Below, one piece after another: positions 9,606 through 30,761 of a stretch of 64,000 nucleotides of DNA (its first letter is position 1; each line of letters starts with the position of its first letter). A model generated the notes under the pieces. It did not search any database and was not told the DNA's origin. It saw nothing but the letters and a program-made list of their open reading frames with translations. Where the stretch lies: positions 13,994 to 77,993 of the forward strand of contig JAJFBF010000005.1 of the NCBI GenBank assembly GCA_020697295.1, read 5' to 3'. A program made the translations under genes and the position numbers. Source of the stretch: Moraxellaceae bacterium. Its GTDB lineage: Bacteria; Pseudomonadota; Gammaproteobacteria; Pseudomonadales; Moraxellaceae.

Positions 9606-10250
9606 TTAGCCATCAATAAATCGACCATTCTCAAACATTATAATTTCAATAGCGCGCAGGGATGTTACCGGATACCCAATTTTCGCATTTACCTTGCGAT
9701 GAAAATCGCTGAACTCCGCTCTGGCAGCAATTTCCTTAAGGGAGCTGAGATATTGAATATATAGCGTAGGGTTATTTACCTGATAGTGGTGCGGCTTCTT
9801 TCCATAAAGGAAGAAGTAAATGCGAGAATCCCAGATGGCATAGTTTTCGGGGGCGCAAAAATGGAGCAGCTTTGATGCGCCAACCATTGAGTTGTTTACG
9901 AGGCCCGAAAGACGAACCAGCTTCTCCTTGCAAAGAGGATGTCCAGCGCGCGCTTGCTCCAGCATGTCTGCTGCCTCTGAGGCCGTCGCCCTATCTTTGC
10001 CTTGGCCGAGCTCTAGGATTGTCGGCATCCAGCCATATACCATGTGGCAAGCTCTGACTACATCGCCTTCGCTGATGCGCTGAAGGCTGCTGAGGAGGCC
10101 AAGAAGATGTTTGTAGGAGATGATATACGACGATGTGCAGTCGATAGTTGTTTCATCAATGAGGGCGAGGATGTCGCGCATATCTTTCCCTGAGGGCTGA
10201 TGCAGAGCATGCGAGGCTGCAAATTGAACTGTGTAACTGCCTTCTGGCAC
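9606..10250 (-). CDS. hypothetical protein (last gene of the GTPase operon?)
   Basis: 214-aa ORF, co-oriented and 68 nt downstream of the 518-aa GTPase. AT-richer. No recognisable motif. Confidence 0.5.
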   Translation of the reverse strand: MPEGSYTVQFAASHALHQPSGKDMRDILALIDETTIDCTSSYIISYKHLLGLLSSLQRISEGDVVRACHMVYGWMPTILELGQGKDRATASEAADMLEQARAGHPLCKEKLVRLSGLVNNSMVGASKLLHFCAPENYAIWDSRIYFFLYGKKPHHYQVNNPTLYIQYLSSLKEIAARAEFSDFHRKVNAKIGYPVTSLRAIEIIMFENGRFIDG

Positions 10251-10318: not shown

Positions 10319-11875
10319 TCAGGCATCAGTTGCCGGCATGATGTGCTTAGAGAGCATCAGGCGGAGGTCAAGCAGAGTCTCCCGATCTGCTGCCAACGCA
10401 CTGAGGCCGGATCGAAGCTCGTCTTGGTGCCGTCTCAATCGGGCCAGGTCATCGGCAAACAGTGACGTCACCACGGTATCGACCTGCTCTGCGAGGCTCT
10501 GCTCAAGCTGTTCCGCCAAGGCGCCGGCCTGTTGGTGGCAGTGCAAGGCGCGGCGTTGCTCCATCTCGTTCTGCCGGGCCTGTTGATTCTGCGCAAGGAA
10601 GACCTCAAAGACGGCGGCAAGGCCGCGGATCAGTGGACCGAAGCGCTTCAGCCATTCTCGCGAGCTCTTCAGAAAGGGCTGCAGCCACTTGAGATTGGCG
10701 AGCGTCTTGGGGATAAGCGTGTGGTCGACGCCCTTTGCAAACTCAACCGCCTGCCGCGCAAGGCCTGCGCCGCCATCCTTGCCGGCCCCGCCTTGAAGTT
10801 CGCTGGCGAGCTGCTGCCAGTCCAGGCTGCTCTCGAGTACCAGGCTTCCTCCACTCTTGATATCGCTAGTCAGCCACTCTTCCACCTGGCGCGCAGCGTC
10901 GGTGCAAGCTGACACAATCCGGTCTTCGACCGATTCGCCGGCCATGGCAGCCTCCACTGCTGCGCGCAGCGGGCCGCGCTGAATGTTCACGGCACGAGTC
11001 ACTTGGTTGCGAGCGGCGAGATGCAACAGGTTGCTGCTCGTCTCGATGCCGGCCATCGCGCGCGTCGCCTCGTCCAGCTTCTTATTGGCATCATTGCCGA
11101 TGTGGCTTTCAATGGCGGTCAGGGCGGGCGTTACCAGACGGCCTTCGACCTGCTGGCAGTAGGCCGCTAAACGTTGCTGCTCGCCCTTGTAGCGCTGCAG
11201 CCAATTTCCGAATGTGACAAGAAAAGCCTCATAGCCCGAGTGCGTCAGAAGCGCTGGCTTATTGCCGAGTCGTGCGCGCATGGCCGAATCAGCGTTCACC
11301 GTAATCACGGGTAGCTCTTCCAGGATGGCGCTACTGACGTTGGCGCTATTGGCGCTGGCGAGCAGCAGGGAGTTGGTTCGGTCGAGAACCCGCGCGACGT
11401 CATCAGCGTCGGTGCTGCGCGGGTTGATGACGAGGAATACCTTCTTACCAGACTTCACCAAGTCCAGAAGGCGGACATAGACGTCCTGTACATCCTGGTC
11501 TTCGTCCGAGATGACGCAGAGGATGAGGTCACTGCGCTCGATTTCCGCCTGGGTAGCCCTTTCGTGCTCGATCGGGGCGTTGACGCCTGGCGAATCCAGC
11601 AGCACATGGCCGTTCCAGTCATAACGGTCAATGCGATCCGTCGTGGGAATGTCGCCGACCCGGGCCTCATCTCGGCCGAGCAGCGCGTTGATCAAGGTGC
11701 TCTTGCCGGCATTGTAGGCGCCGAACACCAGGACATTGAGTCGCTGTTCCTGGCTGCGCGTGTGAAGATCGGCAAGAGTTACCTCCGCCTGTGAGCCCAA
11801 GGCGCGCTGGAACAGCGGTGCCAATTCCACGAGTTGGGTGTCGATCTTCTCAAAGGGACTATTCATGTAGGGCAT
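10319..11875 (-). CDS. dynamin-like P-loop GTPase
   Basis: G1 VFGAYNAGKSTLINALLG, G3 LLDSPGV, long helical C-terminus. Start at 11875 or ATG at 11866, either of which overlaps the upstream gene end. Confidence 0.85.
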   Translation of the reverse strand: MPYMNSPFEKIDTQLVELAPLFQRALGSQAEVTLADLHTRSQEQRLNVLVFGAYNAGKSTLINALLGRDEARVGDIPTTDRIDRYDWNGHVLLDSPGVNAPIEHERATQAEIERSDLILCVISDEDQDVQDVYVRLLDLVKSGKKVFLVINPRSTDADDVARVLDRTNSLLLASANSANVSSAILEELPVITVNADSAMRARLGNKPALLTHSGYEAFLVTFGNWLQRYKGEQQRLAAYCQQVEGRLVTPALTAIESHIGNDANKKLDEATRAMAGIETSSNLLHLAARNQVTRAVNIQRGPLRAAVEAAMAGESVEDRIVSACTDAARQVEEWLTSDIKSGGSLVLESSLDWQQLASELQGGAGKDGGAGLARQAVEFAKGVDHTLIPKTLANLKWLQPFLKSSREWLKRFGPLIRGLAAVFEVFLAQNQQARQNEMEQRRALHCHQQAGALAEQLEQSLAEQVDTVVTSLFADDLARLRRHQDELRSGLSALAADRETLLDLRLMLSKHIMPATDA

Positions 11876-13547
11876 CCTTCGCCTTCTTCAGGCGCTCTTC
11901 AAATGTTGTGATGTGCTCGTTCAGTTCGGCGGCATGGCCTCTCAAGCGATCGATTGATTCGATACAGTTGTCGATGACGCGGTTGACCTCCTTCGGCACA
12001 ATCGTCTCGAGAAGCGACTGGACGCGCTCCAGAATTTCCTCAGAGGTCACGCCAACCACCTTGGTTTCCCATCGCTCTTCGACAAACCGATCGCCTACCT
12101 TGCTCCCCAGCCAACCTCCGACTAGGCCGCCGACGAAGGTTCCGATGACGGGAATAGGCACCAGAGTGCCGACGGCAGCCCCTAGCATCGCGCCTGCGCC
12201 GGCCGCCGCGGCACGGCTTCCGCTGCCGCTGACCACACGGATGTCGTAACTGTTCTCTGTGAAGCTGCCGATGTCGGCGCTGGAGAGATCGACCAGGATC
12301 TGGTCGATGTTCTTCAGGTACTGGGAGAGGGTTTCCTGCAGCCGTTTGTTGATGCTCTCGACAAGAACATTAGAAATGGCGTGACGAAGCGTGACCACAT
12401 CCTGTTGACCCTTCGTCTTTTCGATAAGCATCGGAAGAGACGCCAGAACATCCGCCATGACTTGTCGGGCCACCGTCTTGCGTTGATGATCAAGCGCCTT
12501 GACTTGTTCACTGGCTTGGCGGGAGAGGTCGGCGATGCGCGGCTGCAGTTGATCATGGATGGTGCCAAGCACCTGGTTTTCCAGATAATTAATCACCTGC
12601 CGCGTGGCCTTGGTCGCCTTGTAGGTCTGCGCGTCGGCAACGCGGTTGGCCAGTTGGGCGAATAGAAGGTCCATGCCGCTGTCTGCAAATCGGCCATCGC
12701 GTTCCGGGTTGCGACGGCAGTAGCGGACGGATATCGATACCGGCGACATGAGGGAGGTGGCGTGCGCGCCGAGCTTGGCGCTGGCACGAGCATGCACATC
12801 GGCCTCCTGGCCGGCCCGACGCGTCTCAGACTTGAGCTCCAGCACCGAAATGATAGCGCCATCGACCTCGTCTTCAACATTGACGTCGCTTTTGGTTATT
12901 ACGGGTAGCAGCGGCTTTCCACGCTCAATCTCGTCCTTGAGGTCGTCAAGCTCCTGCACCTGTCCGGGAGCGACAGAGCTCGTTACCCATAGCACTACGT
13001 CGGCGCTATCGGTAAAGCGGCGAGTGAGGTCGCCATTCTCGCTGGTCACTGAGTGCAAGCCAGGGGAGTCCAGCAGGACTAGTCGCTGTCCGAGGCGAAC
13101 CCCCTGGATGCGAGCAGTGGTTTCAGTGGCACCCTCTGCAAACTCTTCTTCAGTGTCAATGAGCTTTCCATTTTCCAGATAAAAGTACTGGACTTTTTCT
13201 TGTGTAAACTGCCGGGCAACAAAGTTGCCGAATGAGCTCTTTCCGCAGTTAACCTTTCCAAAGACGAGAATGATGACCTGGTCGCCGAAGGTGGAAGAAA
13301 GTTCGCGCATGGGTGCGGCAGCATCCCATCTGCCAACGACTTCTTCAATAATAGTGGTAATGTTACGACCAACTTCCCGCGCCAATTTTCCCAGTTCGTT
13401 GTCATCCGCGAGGCGGCTGGTCGAAGTGGTTTTTCGAAGACCCTGTATCAGCTCCTCCCGGAGTGGAATCAGGCGGGCCTCGGCAGCACCAATATCATCA
13501 AAACGTGCGGTGAAGCTGGAAAGTGCCTCAATAAATGCCGCTCTCAC
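11859..13547 (-). CDS. dynamin-like GTPase with C-terminal glycine-zipper membrane hairpin
   Basis: G1 VFGKVNCGKSSFGN, G3 LLDSPGL, G4 ITKSD. Hydrophobic segment GAGAMLGAAVGTLVPIPVIGTFVGGLVGGWLG. GTG at 13547 is preceded by GGAGGA. The ORF track start is 13601. Confidence 0.85.
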   Translation of the reverse strand: MRAAFIEALSSFTARFDDIGAAEARLIPLREELIQGLRKTTSTSRLADDNELGKLAREVGRNITTIIEEVVGRWDAAAPMRELSSTFGDQVIILVFGKVNCGKSSFGNFVARQFTQEKVQYFYLENGKLIDTEEEFAEGATETTARIQGVRLGQRLVLLDSPGLHSVTSENGDLTRRFTDSADVVLWVTSSVAPGQVQELDDLKDEIERGKPLLPVITKSDVNVEDEVDGAIISVLELKSETRRAGQEADVHARASAKLGAHATSLMSPVSISVRYCRRNPERDGRFADSGMDLLFAQLANRVADAQTYKATKATRQVINYLENQVLGTIHDQLQPRIADLSRQASEQVKALDHQRKTVARQVMADVLASLPMLIEKTKGQQDVVTLRHAISNVLVESINKRLQETLSQYLKNIDQILVDLSSADIGSFTENSYDIRVVSGSGSRAAAAGAGAMLGAAVGTLVPIPVIGTFVGGLVGGWLGSKVGDRFVEERWETKVVGVTSEEILERVQSLLETIVPKEVNRVIDNCIESIDRLRGHAAELNEHITTFEERLKKAKDALHE

Positions 13548-13917
13548 GGAGATCCTCCAGGAATTTAATGGCTGCGTTCTCACGCTCGGCCAGGGTTGCA
13601 AGACTGCTTATTTCTGCCTGCTGCTCGGCTCTTTCTGGGAGTGCCAGATAGGCAGCATGAAGTTGGCTCTCAAAGCGGTCAGGGTTATGAATCAAGGATT
13701 CTGCGCTAAAGCCGGCGGCAGGGACCTGGTATGACGCCAGCAATGCGGTCAGGTGCAGGCTGAGTTCGTCGACTACGGCTCGCCTGCGAGCCGCATGGCC
13801 CTCATCTTCCAGGCAGAAGGCGACACGAAGCTCCGTCATGACGTCCTGAAGATCACTGTTCGCTTTAACCCGCGGAATCCCCTGCAAAGTATCGAGAACT
13901 AGTCGAGCGAATGTCAT
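13528..13917 (-). CDS. small helical hypothetical protein
   Basis: 129-aa ORF. Its start forms an ATGA overlap with the upstream GTPase stop (13914-13917). Confidence 0.6.
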   Translation of the reverse strand: MTFARLVLDTLQGIPRVKANSDLQDVMTELRVAFCLEDEGHAARRRAVVDELSLHLTALLASYQVPAAGFSAESLIHNPDRFESQLHAAYLALPERAEQQAEISSLATLAERENAAIKFLEDLRESGIY

Positions 13918-15412: not shown

Positions 15413-17134
15413 TCAATGTGACTGAGCCGCATACCGCCCAATCGCCACCCCCGCCGCCCCCGTATGCAACACATCCAGACTGAACGTCGCCCGCGTCATC
15501 CCGCAATACAGTAGGTTCCGAGTCCGCTCCGTGATCTCCTCAAAATCCAGGTCAATCAGGATCACGGCCTTCGCCTGCTGCCCCTTGAACCGGAACAGGG
15601 TTTCGCAGCGCAGCTCACCTTCGGAAAACACGGGCTGGCCATTCGCCTCGTAGGTGCCGGTAAAGGTCTTCACCCGCAGGCCGGCCACGGTGTCATCGCC
15701 CAGAGCGCTCTTGCCGCGTCCCTTCAAGCTCACAATGGCCAGGTCTTCCGGCGCAAAACGCGCAAGCTGCTCCTGCACCACCCGTTGCAGGGTCTCGTGG
15801 AAAGTGTCGCCGTTATGCTGGTGAAAGCGCGGTTCTTCCCCGGCAATCGGGTTGGCCGCGGTCATGCCCGGCAGGTGTAGGAGAGGCGACAAGAGTTCGG
15901 CAATGCGGCGCGGTGAACGGTAGTTCCGGTCCAGGTGAAGGTGGACGGTGCCGGCGTGCTGATAGTCCCGCTCCTGCAGGCGCTGGTAAGGATCTTCCAG
16001 CCAAATCAGTTCGCCGCCCTCGCGCAGGAAATGGCGGGCGGTGGCGGCCATCTCCGCATCAAAGTCCTGGCCTTCGTCCACAATCAGCACGTCAAAGCGC
16101 CAGTCTTCCGGCAGCGGATGGGCGAGTACGGCCTGCCGCAATTCCATGAAGAAGTCCGGGCCCTGTTCGCCAAAGGCCGGCAGCTCGCCGCGGGCCTCCA
16201 GCACTTCGCGCACCAGATGGTCGAGGTTGGCGACATGGCAGCCTGCCGGGAAGAAAGGCCGCAATGCATCGGCCAGCGGACGGTTGAAGCAGGTGTAGAG
16301 CGGGCGCAGGCCGCGGGACAGGGCCCGCTGCGCCAGGTGCCGGGCGAGCTGGGTCTTGCCGGAGCCGGCGCAACCGGTGACATGCAGCGACCAGGGCTGG
16401 AAGGACAGTCGATCCACCCACTCGCCAAGCTCGGTGGCAAAGCCGCGATAGACGGCCTGCTGGCGCTCCATGGAGGCGCCGAGGTCGGGCGCCAGGTCGA
16501 GTTCGCCCAGGAGGAAATTGACGACGTCGCTGACATGGTCGGGGGAGGTGGGCTTGTCGGCATGGATCTCCTGCACGATCTCGCCCAGACGCTCCATCTG
16601 CGTGCTGTCGATGATGCGCTGGGGATTGAGCTGCAGGCCCTGGTAGGAGCGCAGGTGATAGTCCGGGCAGACGAGCAGGTAGTCGACGGCAATCGAGCTA
16701 CGGCCCTGGTAACGGTACTTCAGGGCATTCTTCACCACTGACACCGAGTTCATGATCTGCTGGCCCACATCCTTGCCCGGGTTCTCCGCGTAGCTTTTCA
16801 GCAGGCGGCCTTGCTCGTCGACCATGAGGCCGCCGTTCTTCTGCTCGATGATGATGAGGTCGCCGGAAGGGGCGACGATGCAGAAGTCGATCTCGCCGAA
16901 CTTGCTCTTGCGCTTGCTGGAGAGGGTGACCCAGCTCAGGTTGGGGAAGATGGCGTAGCGGTCGGGGAGGGCGGCGGCGAGGCGGTCCAGCATGTCGCGC
17001 TCGGCGTCGTGCATGAAGGCGGCGCGCAGTTCCTGCCAGTTTTCGGGGTAGATGGTGGCCATGAGTCCCTTCGGGCGGCTGTCCTTGTTGTTATTGAACC
17101 CCGCCGTAGAGCCGTTCTTTGGCAGGGGCTTCAT
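15413..17134 (-). CDS. NERD-domain / UvrD-like SF1 helicase fusion
   Basis: NERD: FGEIDFCIVAPSGDLIIIEQKNG. Helicase: VTGCAGSGKTQLA, LIVDEGQDF, C-terminal FKGQQAKAVILID...LLYCGMTRA. Start ATG at 17134 with GGGAG SD. The ORF track start at 17323 is probably too long. Confidence 0.85.
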   Translation of the reverse strand: MKPLPKNGSTAGFNNNKDSRPKGLMATIYPENWQELRAAFMHDAERDMLDRLAAALPDRYAIFPNLSWVTLSSKRKSKFGEIDFCIVAPSGDLIIIEQKNGGLMVDEQGRLLKSYAENPGKDVGQQIMNSVSVVKNALKYRYQGRSSIAVDYLLVCPDYHLRSYQGLQLNPQRIIDSTQMERLGEIVQEIHADKPTSPDHVSDVVNFLLGELDLAPDLGASMERQQAVYRGFATELGEWVDRLSFQPWSLHVTGCAGSGKTQLARHLAQRALSRGLRPLYTCFNRPLADALRPFFPAGCHVANLDHLVREVLEARGELPAFGEQGPDFFMELRQAVLAHPLPEDWRFDVLIVDEGQDFDAEMAATARHFLREGGELIWLEDPYQRLQERDYQHAGTVHLHLDRNYRSPRRIAELLSPLLHLPGMTAANPIAGEEPRFHQHNGDTFHETLQRVVQEQLARFAPEDLAIVSLKGRGKSALGDDTVAGLRVKTFTGTYEANGQPVFSEGELRCETLFRFKGQQAKAVILIDLDFEEITERTRNLLYCGMTRATFSLDVLHTGAAGVAIGRYAAQSH

Positions 17135-17228: not shown

Positions 17229-17735
17229 CTACATGTCCGCCTGGAGGCTCTCGTCGCCGGACAGGGAAAGGCTTTGCGCCCAGTCGGCGGAATCCGGCTC
17301 GGCCAACCAGCAGAGGCTGTCATGCCGGCTGCCCGCCACTCCCTGCCAGCCTTCCGCCGTCAGAATGGGCGGAGCGACAAACCATTCGCGCACCTCGCCG
17401 TCGGGATTGACCGTCAAGGCGCATCTGTCTGCCGCCAGCGCTATCCGTAAGCCGCGAATGACCTGTGGCCGGTGCCGGAAGCCGTTGTCGTCCAGACAGT
17501 CCGGGCCGGTGACGCCCTGTAGCTGCCAGCAGTCGTCAAGCGGCGTGGCCTGACCGATGATGAAGTGCTGGCCGCGCACGTCCCAATGCGCCATGCCCTT
17601 GTCATCTTCCTGCAGGCGCGGCTTGTCCTCGCAGGCGATAACCTGACCCTGGGGCTGGTAGGTGATCCAGTTCACCCATAGTGGCAGCTTCTGGATAACG
17701 TCGGCGACCAGGAGGCGTGGGTGCTCGATTTTCAT
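17229..17735 (-). CDS. hypothetical protein upstream of the NERD helicase
   Basis: 169 aa from ATG at 17735 (AGGAA SD). The longer ORF (to 18161) has an Arg/Pro-rich, non-coding-looking N-terminus. Confidence 0.5.
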   Translation of the reverse strand: MKIEHPRLLVADVIQKLPLWVNWITYQPQGQVIACEDKPRLQEDDKGMAHWDVRGQHFIIGQATPLDDCWQLQGVTGPDCLDDNGFRHRPQVIRGLRIALAADRCALTVNPDGEVREWFVAPPILTAEGWQGVAGSRHDSLCWLAEPDSADWAQSLSLSGDESLQADM

Positions 17736-17920
17736 AGGGATTTCCTGGCGCAGATTGCTGCGCAGTTTTATAAGCGGCAATCTCGGACTGTCTGCCCGGG
17801 ATGCGACAACATGCGCCGTATTGGCCGGGAACCAGGAGGCAAGGGCAGGCTGGATAAGCGACAAATACTGACGCATGGCCATGTTGTGATTGTCACCTGC
17901 TCTCCACCTCCGGAATTTCC

Positions 17921-18507: not shown

Positions 18508-20385
18508 CTACTCCGTATGGCGTCCCGGATACGGCCGCACCTCGTTTTCCATCTTGGGCGGGTCCGCATTAAAGGCTCGCGAGAAGTCGGCGATGCCCAG
18601 GCGCAGGAGCTGTCCCATCATCTCGAAATCAGACGCGATAATCGCGTTGAAGCGCCCCTTCAGCTGCTCCTGCTCCCAGCGCTTCGACCAGCCGCGGCGC
18701 AGCTCCATCGTGGCGATGCGCAGCTTGCCCCAGCGAATGCTCACGATATGGCACTCCCCGGCCTGGCATTCCGACGCATAACTGTCCACGCAGTGCCGCA
18801 TCTCCATGGCTTCTTCCATCAGCTCCGCTTCGTGCTCCAGGGTCAGGAAACGAAAATCCTGCCAGGCGTGCTCGCGCAGCGGAACACGCCAGCGATGCGC
18901 CACCGTACGCTTTGCCTTTGTCGGCCGGGGTCCCGGTGGCTGTGCCTGTAGCCCCTGCGCTTGTTGACGTTGCTGCTCTTGCTGCAGTTGCTGCAGGCGC
19001 GCGGCCTGCTCCCCGCGTTCGCGTTCCGCGCACATCCGTTCATGCCATTGCCGCGACTGCCGGAGCAGGGCCGGCACTTCTCCCTTGAAGGCCTGGGGCG
19101 GCAGCAGGGGGCTGCAGGCGCGGAACCAGTCGATCAGGTCGCTGAGGTCTTCGCGGTGCCGCGCCATGGCTTCCGGCGTGGCTGAATGCAGCAGGTGGCG
19201 GGCGATGGCGGTGAGCAGCAGGTCGGTTTTCTTGACCTGCTCCGGCGGTAGCTCGGCGCCGGGTACCACTCCATTGAGCACCCGCAGCGAGGCGCTGCGT
19301 CGTTGCAGGCGATACCACTGCTGGCGTTCGCCGCAAACCGGCGCTCGCAGGCCCGTGCGCAGGGCGGTGAGGCGGGAGGGAATGTCGCTGACGATCTCCG
19401 GCAACTGGTGGCGCCAGGCGCGGTAAAAGCGCGTGCAGGGGCCAAGCCGCGACAGCAGGAAGCCGAGTGCCGGCAGGAAGTCGGCCAGCCGTCCCTCGGC
19501 CTGCCAGTGGCCGAGCGTAAGGCCCAGGTCGCGCAACTGCGGCAGCGGGACCTGGTGCAACCGTGCCCACGCGTTGCGCGGCAGGCCCTGAGCGCGCAAG
19601 GCGGCGCGGACGTCGTCGATGCGCAACGAGCCGATAAGGCCCGCCTCGCGCAGGGGCAGCGCCAGCCACACCAGCTTGCGGGCGCGGCGCGGCCAGCGGC
19701 GCAAGGTCTCCCACTCGGCGAGCAGGCAGCCGATCTCCGCCGGCGTGGGGTGCGGCGTGCCGCGCCCGAGTTCGCGCAGGTAGCACTGCAGGAAACCGGA
19801 GGGATAGCCGATCCGACGCAACAGCAGTGCCTTCAGTAGCGGCCCTTCGCCTTCAAGGGTGCGTCGCACGACAGTGGCGAGGGTGCGTGGCAGCTCGTGG
19901 CGCTCGACGGGCCACAGATCCTCGAACCATGGCTGCAGCAACAGCCACTGTCCGGTCCATCCCCGCAGCAGTGGCCCCAGCGCCACGATCCACTCGGCAT
20001 TGTTGAGCGGCTCTTGCAGCTGCCGCTCCGGCTGCCAGTCGCCGGTTTGCCAATAGCCGATGGCCTGGCCCTGCGTATTGAGGCGCACCTGCAGCCGGCA
20101 ATCGCCAATCCGGATCGCGCGCTGATCGCCATTGTCCTGCACCTGCACCATGAGGCGCACCAGATGCAGCGAGAGTGCCGCGGCATCGAGGGGCACCGTC
20201 GCCGGATCGGAAAACGCCGACCCGGCCTGGGTCATCTCGGACCGGACCATTCTGGACAGCGCCATCGCCAGCTGGGCGGCAAGCGCCTGCTCCAGGTCAT
20301 CGGGCTCTGGCGTGTCAAGAAGCAGCGCGCGCAGCGACGCAATATCCGCGGGGTCACAGGCGGCGGGCTGGAAGGCTTTGCTCAT
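18508..20385 (-). CDS. PcfJ-like domain protein
   Basis: C-terminal core LEHEAELMEEAMEMRHCVDSYASECQAGECHIVSI resembles the PcfJ-like family signature (EG..M.HCV..Y) as I recall it. ATG at 20385. Confidence 0.75.
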   Translation of the reverse strand: MSKAFQPAACDPADIASLRALLLDTPEPDDLEQALAAQLAMALSRMVRSEMTQAGSAFSDPATVPLDAAALSLHLVRLMVQVQDNGDQRAIRIGDCRLQVRLNTQGQAIGYWQTGDWQPERQLQEPLNNAEWIVALGPLLRGWTGQWLLLQPWFEDLWPVERHELPRTLATVVRRTLEGEGPLLKALLLRRIGYPSGFLQCYLRELGRGTPHPTPAEIGCLLAEWETLRRWPRRARKLVWLALPLREAGLIGSLRIDDVRAALRAQGLPRNAWARLHQVPLPQLRDLGLTLGHWQAEGRLADFLPALGFLLSRLGPCTRFYRAWRHQLPEIVSDIPSRLTALRTGLRAPVCGERQQWYRLQRRSASLRVLNGVVPGAELPPEQVKKTDLLLTAIARHLLHSATPEAMARHREDLSDLIDWFRACSPLLPPQAFKGEVPALLRQSRQWHERMCAERERGEQAARLQQLQQEQQRQQAQGLQAQPPGPRPTKAKRTVAHRWRVPLREHAWQDFRFLTLEHEAELMEEAMEMRHCVDSYASECQAGECHIVSIRWGKLRIATMELRRGWSKRWEQEQLKGRFNAIIASDFEMMGQLLRLGIADFSRAFNADPPKMENEVRPYPGRHTE

Positions 20386-20406
20386 GTGCAATTTCGCCCG
20401 GCTGGC

Positions 20407-21201
20407 CTAGCACACGAACACATAAAGACCGGATGGCAGGGCATCGGTATTCGGCAGGGCAATCACCACCGCGCAATCAGCCTCGCAATGCTGGCTCAGG
20501 TGGTCGCCGACCTCGGTAAAGTCGGCCAGCGTGCAGGTCTCCGGCATGACCATCACGGCCCAGAGCGTGTGCCGTCCCCGAAAATCGTCCAGCTGCGACA
20601 GCATGGCGCGCATGCGCTCCGGGCCCTCCTGTCGCAACGGCGCCCACAGCAGGCACCCCTCGCCGGTCAGGTTGTTGCGCAGGTCGCCGTAGTCGATGCC
20701 GACCACGCCTTGGCACATCACGCTGCTCCAGATCACCTCGGCGGCGAGCAGTGGCGGCAGGGAGGGTGGGCACTTGCAAAGAAAACCCATCGCCGCGAGC
20801 AGGGCGGCCCGTTCTGCGGGCGGCAGCGACGGATCCTCGGGCATGAAGGCCATGACATCTCGCCCGCGGCTCTTGACGTGCGCGCCGATCGCCGTGGCCA
20901 GCGCACGAGACTCTGCAGACTCGCCGATGACCAGCAACAGCCACTCGGCCTCAGACATCATGGCGTCGATGGCCGCGCCATCTTCCGGAGAAAGCCCGGC
21001 GGCAGCGGCCGGCGGAAATACCGCTGGCACTGAATGAAGGCGGATCCCGGGAAGCTGGCCCTGTGGCCCGCCGCTGGCCGTCAGGGCCTGGTAGCAGCGG
21101 AGGAGTTCGACTGGGAAGTGGGTCGTTCTGGGCTCGTGGCGCAAAGGTGCGCAAATCACGAGGCGGACGAGGTCAACGGGCGAAAAGTCGGTATCTGGCA
21201 T
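20407..21201 (-). CDS. degenerate FtsZ/tubulin-like protein
   Basis: Colinear with FtsZ: LVRLVICAPLRHE / LLLVIGESAESRALATAIGAHVKSRGRDVMAFM / VVGIDYGDLRNNL (T7-like) / LWAVMVMPETCTLADFTEVGDHL...AVVIALPNTD...LYVFV. The glycine GTP loops are lost. AGGAG SD. Confidence 0.6.
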   Translation of the reverse strand: MPDTDFSPVDLVRLVICAPLRHEPRTTHFPVELLRCYQALTASGGPQGQLPGIRLHSVPAVFPPAAAAGLSPEDGAAIDAMMSEAEWLLLVIGESAESRALATAIGAHVKSRGRDVMAFMPEDPSLPPAERAALLAAMGFLCKCPPSLPPLLAAEVIWSSVMCQGVVGIDYGDLRNNLTGEGCLLWAPLRQEGPERMRAMLSQLDDFRGRHTLWAVMVMPETCTLADFTEVGDHLSQHCEADCAVVIALPNTDALPSGLYVFVC

Positions 21202-21310
21202 GGCAGGTGCTCCTGGACCTGCCCAGCTTGACGGTGGGGTGCGTCAGGACGTGTCGGATGGCGCCTGGTGCCAGATGCCCTGGCTCCGGGGATTCACGGC
21301 ACGGCTGGCG

Positions 21311-21760
21311 TCAGTGCGACACAAGAAGTCGCACCTCCCTGTTAGCCTCTATCCACACCACGGCGTTCTGCCCGAATTCCCGCCCCAGCTGGATGGCGTT
21401 GCTCTCTGTCACGCCCAACACCAGCAAGGAGGCCTCGGGATCCCAGGCCGTATCGGTGCCCAGGCCGGCGCCCCCGCAGTAGCGAAAACCGCGGTTCTGG
21501 AGTTGCAGTCGCAGACTGCGCTGCCGGTCCAGGTTGTGTTCCGGCGCCAGATCCGGCCCGTGTTGGGGATTGTAGGCCGTGATGAACACGGCAGCCGAAA
21601 CGGCGCTGCGCTCGAGCAGCCGCGCGGTCACGCCGTCAGGGCGCTGGCCCACGCGGATGACGCCAATGGCCTCGTGATCGCGGAACACGAACACGGTGTC
21701 GGCATAGGCCTGCCACAGGCCGTCGGGAATCAGCCCGGGGGCAGGGGATCGAAGCTTCAT
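21311..21760 (-). CDS. DUF3293-like protein
   Basis: AAVFITAYNPQHG...NLDRQRSLRLQLQNRG...EASLLVLGV..AIQLGREFGQNAVVW resembles DUF3293 as I recall it. ATG at 21760 with GGGAG SD. Confidence 0.6.
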   Translation of the reverse strand: MKLRSPAPGLIPDGLWQAYADTVFVFRDHEAIGVIRVGQRPDGVTARLLERSAVSAAVFITAYNPQHGPDLAPEHNLDRQRSLRLQLQNRGFRYCGGAGLGTDTAWDPEASLLVLGVTESNAIQLGREFGQNAVVWIEANREVRLLVSH

Positions 21761-21895
21761 GCACCAACTCCCGGCGCGGGGCATGTCACCGATGCCCGGC
21801 GCGGTTCAAGAATTCAAGGGCTCGTGCCACAAGCCGGTCCGGCATACACCAAGTCCTCCGTCACGCCAGCGGGGGGCATACCGGAGGGACTCATC

Positions 21896-22519
21896 ATGGC
21901 TACCACGATTGAGCAAGTTTGCGGCTACCTGAACGACCTGGGGGTCAGTGTCAGTGAGGTGGACAGGGACAATGAGCAGATCCTGTTTTTTCTCAGTCCG
22001 CTCAACCTGTCGCTGCGTTGTTATATCAACCTGCGCAGCGAGGGGAAATACATTGTCGTCACCTGTTATCCGGAAATCGTCAACCAGGCGCCTCTGGCGC
22101 CGCTGCGTCGCGAGCAGGTGCTGGAGCGCCTGAATGCGTTCAACTGCGACTTCATTTACGGGCGCTGGGGACTGGGCGACAACGAGGAGCCGCGGGTCAC
22201 TTTTCCCTTGCACCTGGAAGATGCGGCGCTGACGCATCGGCAGATATGGTCGGTGATCTTTATCCTCAAGGATCTGGTCATCCTCCAGGCGCAAAGCCTG
22301 CAGTTGCTGATCGGCGCGGGTATCCAGGCGCCGGTGGAGGAGGCCTTGCTCTCCGGCATCGCCATCAGCGCGGCCCTGGGGCATCCCTCGCGCGTTGCCG
22401 AAATCGCCCATGTCCTGTGCCTGCAGCCGGCAGCGGCCCATGCCCTGCACGAACTGGTGGGCGAAACCGCGACGGTGCAGGACGAGGAGGTGGAGTGCCC
22501 AAGGCTGCTGCTCAACTAG
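21896..22519 (+). CDS. YbjN-like (T3SS-chaperone-like fold) protein, tentative
   Basis: 207 aa from ATG at 21896 (GGAGGGA SD). The N-terminal 120 aa has the YbjN-like pattern (IEQVCGYLNDLG..ILFFLS..LRCYINL..GKYIVVTCYPEI). Confidence 0.55.
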   Translation: MATTIEQVCGYLNDLGVSVSEVDRDNEQILFFLSPLNLSLRCYINLRSEGKYIVVTCYPEIVNQAPLAPLRREQVLERLNAFNCDFIYGRWGLGDNEEPRVTFPLHLEDAALTHRQIWSVIFILKDLVILQAQSLQLLIGAGIQAPVEEALLSGIAISAALGHPSRVAEIAHVLCLQPAAAHALHELVGETATVQDEEVECPRLLLN

Positions 22520-22608
22520 GCACTGGTGCGCTGGCGGCAGTTTCCGCGGGGCGGTGCATTCCAGCGGCAGGGCTTTCGTCAGGCAGGTTTTTTCACAGGA
22601 GGGAGCGG

Positions 22609-23118
22609 ATGGATTTCGATGTGACTTCCACATTATGGGCCGGGCAGGATCCCGCGCCCTTCTTTCATGGCCTGCAGATCCGGCACCGTGTCCAGAAGGG
22701 CGGAACCTGCGTTTCCACGGGGCTGAGCCTGCTGACCCGCGAGGCCCCGGCCACGATCCGCCGCCGGATCAACACCCAGGACCCGGTGTCGTGGTCGCAT
22801 TATCTGCAGGCACATGGCATGCGCCTGGCCTATTGCCCCACGGATTTCCGGCGACTCCAGCATTATGTCGACGACCTGCTGGCCCTCGATGACCTCTTTA
22901 CCCTGAGCACCTATTCGCCGGAAATGGCGCAGCGCATTGGCGCCGAGCCCGATGACTCCGGGTGGATCTGCTCCTCGCACTTCGTCATCCTGCACCGGGA
23001 TGTCGTGTATGACACTGTGTACGCTGAACCGGTGCTGTTGCGGGACTATGACGACCTGCAGCGGTATGTGAAGCGGATTTTCCGCGTCGTGCCAGCCACC
23101 CACGACCGCGGCCTTTGA
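22609..23118 (+). CDS. papain-fold cysteine peptidase-like protein, tentative
   Basis: 169 aa with AGGAGGGAG SD. Q-x4-C (QKGGTCVSTGLSLL) and a later SSHFVILHRDVVYD (His/Asp) give a Q-C-H-D order. Confidence 0.5.
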   Translation: MDFDVTSTLWAGQDPAPFFHGLQIRHRVQKGGTCVSTGLSLLTREAPATIRRRINTQDPVSWSHYLQAHGMRLAYCPTDFRRLQHYVDDLLALDDLFTLSTYSPEMAQRIGAEPDDSGWICSSHFVILHRDVVYDTVYAEPVLLRDYDDLQRYVKRIFRVVPATHDRGL

Positions 23119-23128
23119 GGATATTCCC

Positions 23129-24058
23129 ATGACCACAGCAAGCCCAGCCAGGGATGCGCTCCAGGCCGAATTCCCGCTCCGCGCGCGCGGGGCGCTTTAC
23201 GGGCTGATCCTGGGCGACATCATCGGCGCCTATTTCGAATTCTCCTCCCGCGGGCGCAAGGAGCTTCCCACCCTGGGTGATCTGGCGGGGAAGACCAACG
23301 TCTTCGGCATCCGCTTTGGCTATACCGACGACAGCATCCTGGCACTGCTCGGCATGGAAAGCCTGGTGGACTGCGCGGGGCGCTGGGACACTGCCAGCCA
23401 GCGTGACCATGCCCGCCGCTACATGAACGGCGAGACCGCCTGGAGTCCGAATGGCCGCTGCTTCGATATCGGGATCTCTACGCTGCGCTCGCTGCGGGAT
23501 GGCGAATGGGCCGGCAAGCGAGACGCCCGCAGCGCTGGCAACGGCGTACTCATGAAGCACCTGCCGTTTGTGATTGGCCGTTGCCTGCATCCGGACCAGG
23601 AACCCGTGGAGTACTACCGGCAGGTCGCCGACCTAACGCATGGCTGTCCGAGTACGGTGACTACCGCAAGGGAAATGGGCCTGCTGCTGGAGCGCCTGCT
23701 GCAAGGCCTGCCCTGGAGCGATGCCCATGCGGGGCTGGACACGGCGATACGCCACGAGACACTTTCGGTCGAGCGGACCTACAGCGGCTTTTGCGAGGAT
23801 TCCTGGGTGCTGGCCCTGCAACTGGTGCAGCGTCGTTTCAAGGACGACCTGGACTGGACGCGTGGCATCCAGTGCATCATGGACCTGGGCGGTGATACCG
23901 ACACCAATGCCGCCATCTATGGTCAGCTATACGGGGCGCTGTTTCCGGCCGAGATCATCGCGCAGTACGAGGCCGTCCGCGCGCATGTCCACCGCGCGGA
24001 GGATATTGATGCGTTACTGGAGCGCTTGCTGGCGACGGGGGAAGGCGTCGCGGCATAA
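23129..24058 (+). CDS. ADP-ribosylglycohydrolase family protein
   Basis: LYGLILGDIIGAYFEF, GYTDDSILAL, LGGDTDTNAAIYGQLYGA are canonical ARH/DraG motifs. Confidence 0.85.
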   Translation: MTTASPARDALQAEFPLRARGALYGLILGDIIGAYFEFSSRGRKELPTLGDLAGKTNVFGIRFGYTDDSILALLGMESLVDCAGRWDTASQRDHARRYMNGETAWSPNGRCFDIGISTLRSLRDGEWAGKRDARSAGNGVLMKHLPFVIGRCLHPDQEPVEYYRQVADLTHGCPSTVTTAREMGLLLERLLQGLPWSDAHAGLDTAIRHETLSVERTYSGFCEDSWVLALQLVQRRFKDDLDWTRGIQCIMDLGGDTDTNAAIYGQLYGALFPAEIIAQYEAVRAHVHRAEDIDALLERLLATGEGVAA

Positions 24059-24595: not shown

Positions 24596-25849
24596 CTAGG
24601 AATAGCGCGCCAGCATGCCGCGCGCCGCATGATGCATGCGCTCGCGCAAATGCACGGGGCCGTCCACGCGCACGTTGGCGCCAAAGCCCAGCAGCCACCA
24701 CAGCAGCTGTTCGGTTTCGCGAAGCCTGGCCTGGATCCGGTGCTGGCCTGCGGCGATCGGCGTGATGACCTGCTTGTCCGCGAGCGGGCTCTCGGCCAGG
24801 TGCAGGCCCGCGCCCTCGAAGAACGTGACATCGAGATCAATCAGGCCGTGCTCGCCGGGGAAGTCCAGGCCCTGCTGTTCATGCACATAGCTATCGAGAT
24901 CGAAGCCGGGGATGGTGCGGCCCGCCTCGTCCTCCAGCAGCGTGGTTTTCTGGAAGCGGTGCAGGGCATAGAGACGCACGTCGTCATAGTCGAATACCGT
25001 GGCCACCAGGTAGGTGACGTGGCCGCGGATGACCAGTCCCAGCGGGTTGAACACATGGTCCTTGCGCAGGGTGCCGTCCTTGAGGCGGTAACTGCCCTGG
25101 AAGCGTGCATTGAGCGCCAGTGCGGAATAGACCACGTCGCGGATGTTGCGCGGGGTCACCGGGCTTTGCAGCGGCTGCGTGGGCGGCACCGCCAGGATCT
25201 TCTTTTGCCAGCTGCTCAGTTGCTGATGGCTGAGGACGCCGTTGAGGCGCTGCTCGGCCTGTTCGAACTGCGGCTTGAGGGCCTCCACCACGAGCGTCGG
25301 CAGCATCTGCACCAGATGCCGCTTCACCATGAGCAGGGTGAGGGCCTCGGCCTGGTTCATCGCAGGCGCCATGCGCTGGCGGGCATCGGTCGGCCAGGCC
25401 CAGCCATGGGGCTTGCTGTCATCGAAGCACTGGATGCCGAAGGCTTGGGAAAGCTCCTTGATGTTGCGCTCGATGGTGCGGCGATTCACCTTGTAGCCCT
25501 GTATTTCCATGCGCTGGTCGATCTGGCTGGTGGTGACCTTCTCGGGGTAGCGCGGAATCATCGCCAGCATGTCGATATAGCGGAGGGCCAGGCTGATGCC
25601 GTCGGCTTTCGGGCTGGTTTTGGCGGCGGCTTTGGCCGGCGCGGGCCGGCGCGTGGCCGTTGCATTGGCCGGCGTATTGGCGGGCGCAGCGGGGCGTTTT
25701 TTTGCAGCGGTCGCGCTGGCGGCGGCCTTTGCCGGCGTGCCGGGGGCGGAGGCTTTTTTTGCACTGCCCCTGGAGGGGCGGGAGGCGGGTGCGACGGGCT
25801 GGGTGGGCATCGGTTTCTTGTTTTTTGGGGGAGCCATCGGGCCGGTCAT
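24596..25849 (-). CDS. WYL-domain transcriptional regulator with Ala/Lys/Pro-rich N-terminal tail
   Basis: HTH (TTSQIDQRMEIQGYKVNRRTIERNIKEL), WYL core (RKDHVFNPLGLVIRGHVTYLVATVFDYDDVRLYALHRF) and an 85-aa tail (AKKASAPGTPAKAAA...AKAAAKTSPK). Confidence 0.8.
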   Translation of the reverse strand: MTGPMAPPKNKKPMPTQPVAPASRPSRGSAKKASAPGTPAKAAASATAAKKRPAAPANTPANATATRRPAPAKAAAKTSPKADGISLALRYIDMLAMIPRYPEKVTTSQIDQRMEIQGYKVNRRTIERNIKELSQAFGIQCFDDSKPHGWAWPTDARQRMAPAMNQAEALTLLMVKRHLVQMLPTLVVEALKPQFEQAEQRLNGVLSHQQLSSWQKKILAVPPTQPLQSPVTPRNIRDVVYSALALNARFQGSYRLKDGTLRKDHVFNPLGLVIRGHVTYLVATVFDYDDVRLYALHRFQKTTLLEDEAGRTIPGFDLDSYVHEQQGLDFPGEHGLIDLDVTFFEGAGLHLAESPLADKQVITPIAAGQHRIQARLRETEQLLWWLLGFGANVRVDGPVHLRERMHHAARGMLARYS

Positions 25850-28628: not shown

Positions 28629-29222
28629 CTAGCTCACGCGGTAGCCACCATTTTCCGCCGCCATCTGATTGAAGAGCGCCCACTTCCGGATCCAGGCAGC
28701 CGCTGCCTCCGGCGCCATGCCGCTGCGGACATAAGGAGCGTGCAGGGCGCTCTCCTGCCGCGCCAGCCCTGCCAGAAGGCCGCTGGCAATCCATTGGCAC
28801 TCCTCCGGCCAGACATACCACGATCGCTGCGAACTGAACTTGCACGACAGCACCTTGCCGGGCTGATCGCTGCGGCGCGTCAGGATGGCGTTGGTGGCGA
28901 GCGCCCATGCATCAAAAAGACGCTCCTCCCGGCTCGTCATCTGGTCCGTGCAGTCGTGGCCGATGAGGCCTTCGGCGCCCTCCACGCAGAATACGGCGCC
29001 GAGTGTGTCGACCCGCTTCTGCGAAATGCCCTTGGGCGGCCAGGCCGGAAAGTCTTCGGGGACGGCCGTGGTATCCATGACGGCGGCGGCCACCATCACC
29101 GCCACCATGTCGTCCATCGCGTGGTTGGAGCAGAGGAAGCGGTCTTCGTATCCCGGTAGTGGCGGGACATAGCCGGCAACCACATCGTCGGGCGGGAACG
29201 CCATCTGCATGTCATAGCCCAT
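28629..29222 (-). CDS. hypothetical protein downstream of DUF2779
   Basis: 197-aa ORF, 39 nt after the DUF2779 gene on the same strand. Trp/Cys-containing globular composition. Confidence 0.55.
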   Translation of the reverse strand: MGYDMQMAFPPDDVVAGYVPPLPGYEDRFLCSNHAMDDMVAVMVAAAVMDTTAVPEDFPAWPPKGISQKRVDTLGAVFCVEGAEGLIGHDCTDQMTSREERLFDAWALATNAILTRRSDQPGKVLSCKFSSQRSWYVWPEECQWIASGLLAGLARQESALHAPYVRSGMAPEAAAAWIRKWALFNQMAAENGGYRVS

Positions 29223-29261
29223 GTTGCCGGCTCCTGGGGGGCGGGGAGAGCAGTGCCGCTC

Positions 29262-30761
29262 TCAGGCCGGGGACGGGGAGCGGGCCGGACTCCGGCGTGA
29301 TGCCTTGCGCCGCCCTTCAAAGAACTTCGCCAGCTCCACCATCGCCTGCGTGTCGCGCCCGCAATATTCCACCAGCGCTGCGCGCACCTGCAGCGCCCTT
29401 GCCGGATCCGTTTCCGGCGACAGCAGCTCCAGAAAGGCCTCCTGCGCCATGCCGCCGTCACCGACCTCCAGTTCGCTGTAATCCAGCTCGGGCGCCACCG
29501 TGGGTAGCACCGCCTTGATCGACCAGGAGCCGCGCATGTCCGGGTGGTAATAGTGGTCTCGCGCAATCACCAGCAGGTCCACCATGCGGTTGATGATGGA
29601 CTGCAATGCCTCCGCGTGTTCGGGGAAGGCCACCGCCATTTCCTGCAGCCGGCTGCGCTCGAAGGACGCGTTCCAGACCAGCACGCTGCCGCGCGGCCCG
29701 ATCGCCGCCAGCAATGTCTCCACGAATTCGCGGCGCGGATCCTCAAGGCCTTCGGCCAGCCAGCCGCGCTCGCGCAAGGTGCCGGTGTGCGACTCCACAT
29801 GACAGGACCACTGGAAGGGCACCTGCTGGTAGGGGCGCGTGCCGGCCCAGATGGGCGCGGCAAAACTGATCGTCTCGAAGTCCATGTAGTAGCGCGGCCA
29901 GGCCAGCGTACTCATGGCCGCGGCGACTTCCTTGCGCAGGACAGGCTTGCCCTTTTGCAGCGAGTCCCAGACCAGCAGGTGGCTGTCGTTGCGCAGGCGA
30001 TCGCGCGGCAGCTCGCGGATGTCGTCGTAGCCCTCGGCGCGCAGGGCGTCGGCCTGCTTGCCGATGCGCGGCAACTCCTCCACGGGATAGGCCTCCGGAT
30101 CCGCCGCCGGATGGCAGTAGCCAATGAAGGGGCATTCATAGGGATCAGTGCACTGCGCGCCCGTTTCGACCCGCGGCTCCTTGCCTTTGAGCGTCTTTTG
30201 CGCCGCCTTGATCCAGCCCGGCACCTCGGGCTGCAGGTCGCGGGCCTGCGAGGTGACGTCCACCGTGGTGAACAGGCCCTGGTAGTCCTCATTGCCGGGG
30301 TACACGAACTGGTTGTTGATGTGCACGACCGAGATCCGCTTGACCTTGACGCCGCAGGCCTCCGCCACGTGCGCCTGGATGGCCACGTCCTGCAGATGGT
30401 AGGACTTCACGCTGGTGGAGGACTTCACCTCGGCGAGGTGATAGCCGCCGCGCTCTGGCAGCAGCAGGTCATTGCGCACCAGCACGCTGTCGGCGTTGAA
30501 GGTGGCCTCGAACACCGGCACCCGTTTGGGTTTGGCCAGCAGCGCCTCCGTGTCCTTCAATGCCTGGGACAGACTGCCGCCATCGATCAGGATGCCCCCC
30601 GGGTGCAGTTGCCGGGCAATGTCACCCACGACGTTGCCGGCATCCATGCGGGACTGCTGGGAAGCGTCCACCACGGTCAGTTCCGGCTTGTTCATCTGCA
30701 GCCACAGGCGCTTGGGGCACTGCAGGTGGGCAATCAGGCGAGACTTGGACAGACCGGCCAT
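29262..30761 (-). CDS. DUF2779-family protein (PD-(D/E)XK / Cas4-like nuclease fold)
   Basis: N-terminus LSKSRLIAHLQCPKRLWL and YMDFETISFAAPIWAGTRPYQQVPFQWSCHV match the DUF2779 family pattern as I recall it. Confidence 0.8.
   Translation of the reverse strand: MAGLSKSRLIAHLQCPKRLWLQMNKPELTVVDASQQSRMDAGNVVGDIARQLHPGGILIDGGSLSQALKDTEALLAKPKRVPVFEATFNADSVLVRNDLLLPERGGYHLAEVKSSTSVKSYHLQDVAIQAHVAEACGVKVKRISVVHINNQFVYPGNEDYQGLFTTVDVTSQARDLQPEVPGWIKAAQKTLKGKEPRVETGAQCTDPYECPFIGYCHPAADPEAYPVEELPRIGKQADALRAEGYDDIRELPRDRLRNDSHLLVWDSLQKGKPVLRKEVAAAMSTLAWPRYYMDFETISFAAPIWAGTRPYQQVPFQWSCHVESHTGTLRERGWLAEGLEDPRREFVETLLAAIGPRGSVLVWNASFERSRLQEMAVAFPEHAEALQSIINRMVDLLVIARDHYYHPDMRGSWSIKAVLPTVAPELDYSELEVGDGGMAQEAFLELLSPETDPARALQVRAALVEYCGRDTQAMVELAKFFEGRRKASRRSPARSPSPA

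Follow-up and report, generated by a model that had tools for sequence, protein, structure and literature searches.

A divergent FtsZ homologue without GTP-binding loops and its PcfJ-like neighbour: a candidate conflict module in a defence island of a Moraxellaceae bacterium

What can a protein of the FtsZ/tubulin superfamily be for when the loops that would hold GTP have been replaced, and what does it mean that its gene stands directly beside one for a PcfJ-like protein? The question is raised by a locus in a 64-kb stretch of DNA from a Moraxellaceae bacterium (GenBank assembly GCA_020697295.1, contig JAJFBF010000005.1, positions 13,994 to 77,993 of the forward strand), which is called the window here and whose own numbering is used throughout. 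On its minus strand lie the gene of FtsZL1 (20407-21201), a 264-residue FtsZ-superfamily homologue that has neither the T1 and T4 GTP loops nor any C-terminal linker or tail, and the gene of a PcfJ-like partner (18508-20385; 625 residues from the ATG at 20385, or 627 residues from a TTG, 18508-20391). An earlier note, made from the sequence alone, had pointed to these two genes and to a third, of the DUF3293 type (21311-21760, minus strand; 149 residues as called, 157 residues for the open reading frame (ORF) 21311-21784), and had read the 264-residue product as a degenerate protein of the FtsZ fold. The three ORFs were found on the minus strand as the note had them, and the spacer between the FtsZL1 and PcfJ-like genes is 21 nucleotides (nt) with the ATG start, in agreement with independent gene calls on the same contig (locus L012). 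Their G+C content at third codon positions (GC3) is 0.80-0.82, similar to that of the adjoining genes. A promoter and terminator scan of 17-26.2 kb performed no better than on shuffled sequence and is thus uninformative on operon structure.

FtsZL1 is a true, highly divergent homologue of FtsZ, as four partly independent tests demonstrate. For the first two, a profile (A1) was made from FtsZL1, six homologues of about 52% identity and FtsZL2, a paralogue encoded elsewhere in the window. Run against all PDB sequences, this profile gave eight matches, all eight to FtsZ (best expect value, E, 0.0019), in which profile positions 172-259 correspond to FtsZ 200-295, namely the end of helix H7, the T7 loop and the C-terminal domain. 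An exhaustive search with the same profile, carried out with no word index on 1.84 billion cluster representatives, returned 21 proteins at E <=1e-3; 16 are family members or fragments, and the five others (E 5e-7 to 2.8e-4) all carry the Pfam domain FtsZ_C, one of them being a tandem FtsZ which also matches the Tubulin GTPase domain. In the third test, a 15-member alignment of the family (A2) was compared by hhalign with an E. coli FtsZ sequence whose key segments agree with FtsZ chains of the PDB; the probability was 88.9% and E 2.4e-6 over 188 columns, pairing query residues 77-264 with FtsZ 76-300. Finally, an AF2 model of FtsZL1 (predicted local distance difference test, pLDDT, 62.5; predicted template modelling score 0.64) was searched against the PDB with Foldseek, and the top 50 matches were all FtsZ (best E 2.8e-5, template modelling score about 0.48), with TubZ, PhuZ and tubulin absent from these 50. 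The N-terminal domain of the model has a pLDDT of 70-90 and the C-terminal domain one below 50; the structural evidence is therefore strongest for the former and the sequence evidence for the latter, and the two complement each other. The profile and structure similarity which the earlier note had named as a check on its FtsZ-fold reading is thus found, and the reading is borne out. Such distant kinship is visible to the family profile alone, as phmmer with the single FtsZL1 sequence found no match in the PDB, and scans of the 264-residue and 274-residue proteins (FtsZL1 and FtsZL2) against Pfam, NCBIfam, PADLOC and PHROGs returned only noise (Mur_ligase_C, E 0.044).

The FtsZL1 branch keeps the two-domain architecture of the superfamily, with a Rossmann-like N-terminal domain, H7, the T7 loop and a FtsZ_C-like domain. 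Three of the four FtsZ-like segments listed in the earlier note recur in the alignments: WLLLVIGESAESRAL (20899-20943, minus strand), comprising strand S4 and a degenerate T4 loop, takes the place of the FtsZ T4 block; GIDYGDLR (20677-20700, minus strand) is aligned with the T7 loop NVDFADVR; and the C-terminal TLWAVMVMPETCTLADFTEVG..AVVIALP is aligned with FtsZ GVLVNITAGFDLRLDEFETVG..TVVIGTS. The fourth, the N-terminal strand with T1, is paired by MAFFT alone and in a register about three residues away from the one proposed. The replacement of both glycine-rich GTP loops, likewise claimed there, is confirmed by alignment, no family member having either the glycine loop of T1 or the tubulin signature of T4 (GGGTGTG). 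At T1, in the MAFFT register, FtsZL1 has a CAPLRHE-type sequence, where the family as a whole has the consensus (L/I)IxCG and then a variable loop without glycine; at T4, FtsZL1 reads GESAESRA, within a family consensus of WLLLV(I)GxxxES(L/R)A. Furthermore, FtsZL1 has about 25 residues fewer than FtsZ in the H5-H6/T6 region and ends at the last strand of the C-terminal domain (…GLYVFVC), so that both the linker and the C-terminal peptide to which FtsA or ZipA would bind are missing. Conserved cysteines are found at C17, C36, C142 and C144. From the loss of the GTP-loop motifs, GTP-dependent polymerisation and GTPase activity are both predicted to be absent.

The best conserved block of the family is, instead, H7/T7, with the consensus AAExLWxSVxxxGxVG(V/I)D(Y/F)xDLR. 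Relative to the NxDxxD of FtsZ, both aspartates of GIDYGDLR are aligned (D170 and D173 with D209 and D212) and the asparagine is replaced by glycine; the first aspartate varies in a few members, and D173 is the sole column conserved to at least 90% across the family and FtsZ together. L225, invariant in A1, is aligned with FtsZ L272. In FtsZ, the T7 residues D209 and D212 reach into the GTP site of the next subunit, and L272 belongs to the same 'bottom' interface. The pattern in FtsZL1 thus appears to be one of a degenerate nucleotide-bearing face and a partly preserved T7 face.

Among the non-family matches of the A1 profile, three proteins (P0023, P0024 and P0026) have GVGDWGC at T1 and no T4 signature, together with FtsZ_C and an intact T7 loop, GVDFADVR, and to judge from these motifs they could be evolutionary intermediates. 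Another, P0022, is a 670-residue tandem FtsZ-FtsZ fusion.

The second protein of the pair is PcfJ-like, as had been proposed: it scores 35.3 bits against a Pfam cutoff of 25 (PF14284) over residues 448-566 of the 627-residue form, contains the motif EEAMEMRHCVDSY, and matches phage PcfJ-like proteins in structure. Ten homologues of this partner, 51-67% identical by BLAST, share the motif MRHCVDSY, which is invariant in its core, and the invariant positions comprise E521, E525, M529, H531, C532, Y536, C540 and C545 as well as a Q574-L-K-G577..N580-A581 stretch. The AF2 model (pLDDT 67) is alpha-helical over residues 10-300 (pLDDT 55-94, falling to about 47 around residues 53-62 and to about 58 around 116-123), is poorly modelled at 310-440, and continues into a long coiled-coil-like helix (436-478) and a C-terminal alpha/beta domain (505-606). 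In BFVD its structure matches many phage 'PcfJ-like proteins' (E down to 7e-6) over cores of about 100 residues, with a root-mean-square deviation of 2.2-2.7 Å. The PDB yielded only non-significant structural matches to GNAT and L/F-transferase folds (E 0.2-1.5), and no solved relative was found there with the sequence profiles of either the partner or the DUF3293 protein. The Pfam family itself takes its name from a gene carried by the conjugative plasmid pCF10. Searching plasmids and phages by tblastn with the partner gave one short domain match, in the early region of a prophage, and this prophage gene has no FtsZ-like neighbour. The literature searched yielded no paper on the function of PcfJ, of DUF3293 or of GTP-less homologues of FtsZ.

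The association between the two proteins extends beyond this genome. Contigs bearing homologues were screened with local hidden Markov models of the FtsZ-like and PcfJ-like families, and ten loci were obtained for the PcfJ partner (the window, L001-L006 and L016-L018), which make up clade 1 with a visible downstream gene. In all ten the PcfJ-like gene is the next gene downstream of the FtsZ-like gene, at gaps of 16-103 nt, and every locus with a homologue of the partner has the FtsZ-like gene directly upstream on the same strand; one clade of the family thus has an obligate PcfJ-like neighbour. This confirms, within one island lineage, the co-occurrence outside the genome that the earlier note had called for. 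In seven of the loci (L001, L002, L004, L005, L006, L016 and L017) a regulator of the WYL/WCX type lies 77-176 nt upstream of the FtsZ-like gene on the same strand, and these regulators are 58-70% identical by BLAST to the one encoded at 24596-25849 (minus strand) in the window, a CapW-like transcription regulator which scores 36.6 bits for Pfam WYL and 47.3 bits for WCX and is also assigned to WYL by PADLOC.

In the window itself, an insert of about 3.4 kb splits the WYL regulator from the FtsZ-like gene. It holds a 148-residue gene, an opposite-strand block (a YbjN-like gene, a 169-residue gene and an ADP-ribosylglycohydrolase) and the DUF3293 gene. The DUF3293 protein scores 65.7 bits against a Pfam cutoff of 25 (PF11697), and its gene does adjoin FtsZL1 here, as had been pointed out; as a conserved partner it does not stand, the other loci having WYL/WCX in that position. 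No DUF3293 gene lies between WYL and the FtsZ-like gene elsewhere, and L009, which has the one further homologue, carries it apart from the FtsZ-like gene. DUF3293 is therefore ruled out as a member of the module by synteny, and its place in a window-specific insert marks it as local baggage. The opposite-strand block (21896-24058, plus strand; YbjN-like gene of 207 residues, ADP-ribosylglycohydrolase with 116 bits) is absent from the related loci and may be a separate, ADP-ribosylation-related module.

On the other side of the pair, a 217-residue gene (17229-17882, minus strand) lies between the PcfJ-like gene and that of a superfamily-1 helicase with NERD and UvrD_C_2 domains (15413-17134, minus strand; 573 residues as called), which by PADLOC resembles NERD helicases linked to DRT systems. 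This helicase recurs at 67-81% identity: the window, L016 and L017 have it downstream of the pair, and L011 has it upstream. A 124-residue gene at 30915-31289 (plus strand) has homologues of about 50% identity directly downstream of the PcfJ-like gene in L001, L002, L005 and L017; its position relative to the pair has thus changed in the window.

The FtsZ-like family is a very rare, very small and fast-evolving branch within the FtsZ/tubulin superfamily, amounting to about 16 clusters at 50% identity among 1.84 billion. Searches of 72,556 plasmids and 50,697 phage records by tblastn gave no match to the FtsZ-like protein, and pattern scans with A1 and with the alignment of the PcfJ partner (A3) found no relatives of either family in 185,579 GTDB species genomes and in JGI metagenomes. 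The family comes essentially from one island lineage. Of the genes in each syntenic locus, the FtsZ-like one has diverged furthest (50-52% identity), next to 51-66% for PcfJ, 66-70% for WYL, 80-81% for the helicase, 81-86% for DUF2779 and 91% for the metallo-beta-lactamase.

Other members of the family are arranged differently. FtsZL2 (50030-50854, minus strand), the 274-residue paralogue in the window, is 34% identical to FtsZL1 (E 2e-37), has lost the GTP loops likewise and retains the DxxD of T7 (ICIDFEDF). Downstream of it follow an IetA-like double AAA+ ATPase (47112-49310, minus strand; 732 residues, Pfam AAA 156 bits, PADLOC IetA 139 bits) and a 588-residue protein (45257-47023, minus strand, as called; the ORF to 47119 has 620 residues) with a possible distant PcfJ domain (FEGIYMQNCIARY). 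The latter had led to the suggestion of a second FtsZ-PcfJ pairing at 45-51 kb. The FtsZ-like half of that suggestion is real; the presumed partner is sub-threshold on Pfam PcfJ (13.5-13.6 bits, E 0.06, cutoff 25) and is not adjacent, being split from FtsZL2 by the 732-residue AAA+ gene and an opposite-strand gene of 158 residues. All five homologues of the 588-residue protein have PcfJ as their sole Pfam match (best E 0.0016). Its own sequence has MQNC, asparagine taking the place of the histidine of the HC motif, and hhalign against A3 gave a probability of 1.6%, so that its identity as a PcfJ protein is not established.

FtsZL2 diverges from an array at the edge of the island, which includes a BrxR-type WYL regulator (53620-54489, plus strand). 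The array as a whole (51495-54489, plus strand) is made up of the genes for a PTP-SAK-type dual-specificity phosphatase, a RhuM-family protein and this regulator. The gene of P0009, in L009, is directly divergent from a BrxR gene whose product is 89% identical to that of the window, and in L010 the FtsZ-like gene (P0010) comes after a WYL gene and a GTPase gene. L011 (10001-11619) carries tandem FtsZ-like genes of 263 and 267 residues, 44% identical and 23 nt apart, with no PcfJ gene; they are preceded by the NERD helicase and a DUF726 protein and are followed by a 43%-identical homologue of the window's 217-residue gene. Taken together, WYL-type regulators adjoin three FtsZ-like clades, with BrxR-type ones divergent to two of them, and there are two to three paralogous FtsZ-like copies per island.

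The FtsZL1 locus lies in a defence island. PADLOC reports a complete Azaca system at 1169-7343 (minus strand), made up of ZacA (6141-7343, 361 bits, also matching Pfam DUF6361), ZacB (4342-6144, 553 bits) and the helicase ZacC (1169-4384, 1099 bits), all on the minus strand. Eleos-like dynamin-like GTPases of the LeoA/LeoBC type follow at 10319-13601 (minus strand; PADLOC 108 and 55 bits). In L016, the module stands beside SNF2, PLD and DUF499 genes. From about 54.9 kb onwards, the window continues with ordinary-looking chromosomal genes, for a GGDEF response regulator, a peptidyl-prolyl isomerase, an AraC regulator, a uracil-DNA glycosylase and a lipid A acyltransferase. No relaxase, type IV secretion system, integrase, tRNA or phage structural gene was found in the 64 kb. 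The G+C content of the island is 0.60-0.69, with the exception of a patch at 8001-10000 (0.50), and a 378-residue ORF at 43977-45113 has a GC3 of 0.60, which suggests mosaic acquisition. PADLOC 2.0 returned no family at E <=0.01 for FtsZL1, the PcfJ-like protein or FtsZL2, and no system of this composition is described in PADLOC, NCBIfam, PHROGs or the literature searched, in line with the earlier note. Of the roles it had offered, a defence-type role fits the surroundings, with Azaca, the Eleos-like genes, the IetA-like ATPase and the NERD helicase. A role in the leading region of an integrative and conjugative element (ICE) is rejected, given the lack of conjugation, integration or tRNA features in the 64 kb and the absence of the FtsZ-like protein from plasmid and phage records. 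The earlier note had made no mention of the WYL regulator or the NERD/UvrD helicase, of the retention of the T7 aspartates, or of the Azaca and Eleos-like systems at the flanks.

Further genes of the island complete this inventory. Between the Eleos-like dynamins and the NERD helicase are a 274-residue MMR_HSR1 GTPase gene and several small genes, the GTPase genes reaching to about 15.2 kb. At 28629-30761 and 41672-43009 (both minus strand) lie the genes for a DUF2779 protein with a weak Cas4-like nuclease match, a 197-residue protein and a metallo-beta-lactamase/RMMBL protein; these are the most conserved backbone of the island, with 74-91% identity across loci. L001 repeats the gene order of the window, with the 588-residue, 333-residue, 298-residue, metallo-beta-lactamase, DUF2779 and 197-residue genes followed by WYL, the FtsZ-like gene and PcfJ. 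A HipA_C kinase domain (79 bits) with an N-terminal MarR-like helix-turn-helix is encoded at 33854-35194 (plus strand), and 35355-39986 holds a DUF1425 gene and genes of 526 and 695 residues, all three of which are kept in L011 at 70-84% identity.

The reading that we prefer, to which we assign a probability of roughly 0.4, is that of a conflict module under WYL control, whose FtsZ-like protein docks through its retained T7/C-terminal-domain face and does so without GTP hydrolysis. Two reports describe CapW- and BrxR-type WYL regulators as controlling defence operons and sensing single-stranded DNA (PMC11662680, PMC9122601). By this scheme, a signal of DNA damage or single-stranded DNA would make the WYL repressor release expression, as described for CapW. 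The FtsZ-like protein, presumably neither a GTPase nor a division protein, would then serve in protein-protein docking by way of its 'bottom' polymerisation face, formed by H7, the T7 DxxD and the C-terminal domain with the equivalent of FtsZ L272. It would most plausibly bind to the face on which a genuine FtsZ-family protein carries its nucleotide, this protein being either host FtsZ or a phage tubulin, and were it host FtsZ, division might be capped or arrested by analogy with SulA and MciZ. The PcfJ-like protein may contribute a sensing or enzymatic activity, and the conflict in question would most likely be one with phages.

Several observations weigh against this proposal. The Pfam models FtsZ_C and Tubulin fail to detect FtsZL1 directly, and the quality of its AF2 model is moderate, above all in the C-terminal domain. 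FtsZ N207, F268 and D269 are not kept, which makes the conservation of the bottom face a partial one, and family-specific residues are conserved at the former nucleotide loops (C17-G18, G93..E97-S98 in the form GxxxES, and C142-x-C144-P), so that the pocket may have gained a new ligand instead of having none. PcfJ domains are typical of phages and plasmids, which fits a role benefiting a mobile element equally well. In addition, since the neighbouring genes are 60-91% identical, the loci are orthologous copies of one island lineage and their co-occurrences are not independent; nor is the FtsZ-like gene strictly tied to PcfJ, considering the AAA+ gene of the second module, the tandem genes of L011 and the GTPase of L010.

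A more specific version, in which the module provides immunity by mimicking a division protein, is in our view rather doubtful. FtsZL1 could act as a decoy or guard with an FtsZ surface, licensing the PcfJ-like partner, and possibly the helicase, once a phage division inhibitor has been captured; or it could be the effector itself, capping host FtsZ or a phage tubulin in order to abort infection. If, on the other hand, the beneficiary were a phage, an ICE or the island itself, the pair would be an anti-defence or establishment module which, for example, manipulates host division or defence on entry. The abundance of PcfJ-domain proteins in large virulent phages (those of the BFVD matches), the prophage copy in an early region, the pCF10 origin of the name and the patchy G+C content of the island all speak for this, and yet the 64 kb are free of mobility and phage structural genes, the FtsZ-like protein is missing from the plasmid and phage records searched, and defence systems of the host type and WYL repressors stand directly next to the pair, so we regard it as quite unlikely. 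The target could also be host FtsZ outside any immune context, in a DNA-damage- or stress-inducible checkpoint of the SulA type which blocks Z-ring assembly. A WYL/WCX regulator directly upstream would suit such an inhibitor, as would a protein that has kept the T7 face and lost its own nucleotide site, and PMC11662680 reports that CapW-type repressors sense single-stranded DNA and DNA damage. An extremely narrow and patchy spread (21 proteins in 1.84e9, none in the GTDB species genomes by pattern scan), fast divergence, two to three paralogues per island and an embedding among defence systems are, however, unlike a housekeeping checkpoint, and this explanation is accordingly improbable.

The resemblance to FtsZ might also be without functional relevance, with FtsZL1 a re-purposed Rossmann-type subunit for ligand binding or scaffolding in an enzyme complex centred on PcfJ. 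The residues conserved specifically in this family at the former nucleotide loops would be accounted for in this way, and the PcfJ domain has its weak GNAT-like fold matches, although these are not significant and conservation in FtsZL1 is strongest in H7/T7 and the C-terminal domain rather than in the pocket; we give little credence to this alternative as well. Least likely of all, and very improbable indeed, is a degenerate type-III partition or positioning cassette of the TubZ/TubR kind, with WYL as the DNA adaptor and the FtsZ-like protein as the filament. Its attraction lies in the order of a winged-helix regulator upstream of a tubulin-fold gene, which resembles that of tubR-tubZ; against it, the GTP loops needed for TubZ dynamics are lost, the structure matches FtsZ rather than TubZ or PhuZ, neither replication repeats nor centromere-like repeats were seen, and no plasmid or phage homologues were found.

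In two surveys of FtsZ/tubulin families, all were identified by, or keep, the GTP-binding signature (PMC2875224, PMC7159879). A natural branch without the nucleotide pocket and with the T7 face would be the first pseudo-GTPase of the superfamily and could become a probe of FtsZ filament ends. Its placement in a defence island, linked to WYL and beside PcfJ, offers an initial way into the function of the PcfJ domain, which is widespread in phages and plasmids. Should the module be immune, it would connect mimicry of cell division with phage defence, and should the mimicry reading in particular be true, FtsZL1 would be the first tubulin-superfamily pseudo-GTPase acting in prokaryotic immunity. 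The importance of these prospects is limited by the extreme rarity of the family and its restriction to one island lineage. On present sequence evidence, the FtsZL1-PcfJ pair is best described as an undescribed and uncatalogued candidate conflict module which includes a putative pseudo-GTPase branch of FtsZ.

Compared with known systems, the nearest relative is FtsZ itself, with which FtsZL1 shares two co-linear domains, an H7-T7 unit with both T7 aspartates and a C-terminal domain recognisable by sequence. It differs in that T1 GGGGGN and T4 GGGTGTG are replaced, in that there is no linker or C-terminal peptide, in its location in a defence island instead of the division and cell wall (dcw) cluster, and in escaping the Pfam models PF00091 and PF12327. 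TubZRC consists of a GTP-binding TubZ and TubR on a plasmid or phage replicon, whereas FtsZL1 has lost the GTP loops and had no homologue in the plasmid and phage records searched. SulA and MciZ occupy the polymerisation interface of FtsZ (for SulA, see PDB 1OFU), and SulA is induced by DNA damage. Their folds are unrelated to FtsZL1 and the analogy is a functional one, the induction of SulA paralleling control by a WYL repressor. As in CapW and BrxR operons, a WYL/WCX or BrxR-type regulator adjoins the FtsZ-like genes in three arrangements, whereas the genes beside the regulator match no defence system catalogued in PADLOC. With the PcfJ-like proteins of phages and plasmids (PF14284), the partner has in common a C-terminal domain of about 100 residues and the motif E..E...M.HC...Y, whereas its helical N-terminal region of about 480 residues and its obligate FtsZ-like neighbour are specific to this clade.

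Two groups of previously predicted systems come closest in concept. Tubulin homologues have been placed in predicted GTPase-centric conflict systems, in which inactive division-related domains serve as effectors (Kaur, Burroughs, Iyer and Aravind 2020, PMC7159879). In those systems, which occur mainly in Firmicutes and Actinobacteria, the partners are TRAFAC GTPases, HSP70, vWA and FNIII, whereas here, in a gammaproteobacterial metagenome-assembled genome, they are the PcfJ-like protein, WYL and the NERD helicase, and a GTPase is adjacent only in L010. The similarly named FtsZl1 and FtsZl2, in turn, are highly divergent members of the FtsZ/tubulin superfamily which are encoded outside the division cluster and predicted to have no role in division (Makarova and Koonin 2010, PMC2875224). 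Both keep GGGTG(S/T)G, which the family described here does not have, and FtsZl1 is without T6-H7, T7 and the FtsZ C-terminal domain and has a coiled coil, a helical C-terminal domain and vWA, GTPase and OmpA neighbours (PMC2875224). The FtsZL1 family is thus the reverse of FtsZl1, in that it has lost the GTP loops and kept T7 and the C-terminal domain, and the company of neighbouring genes is a different one.

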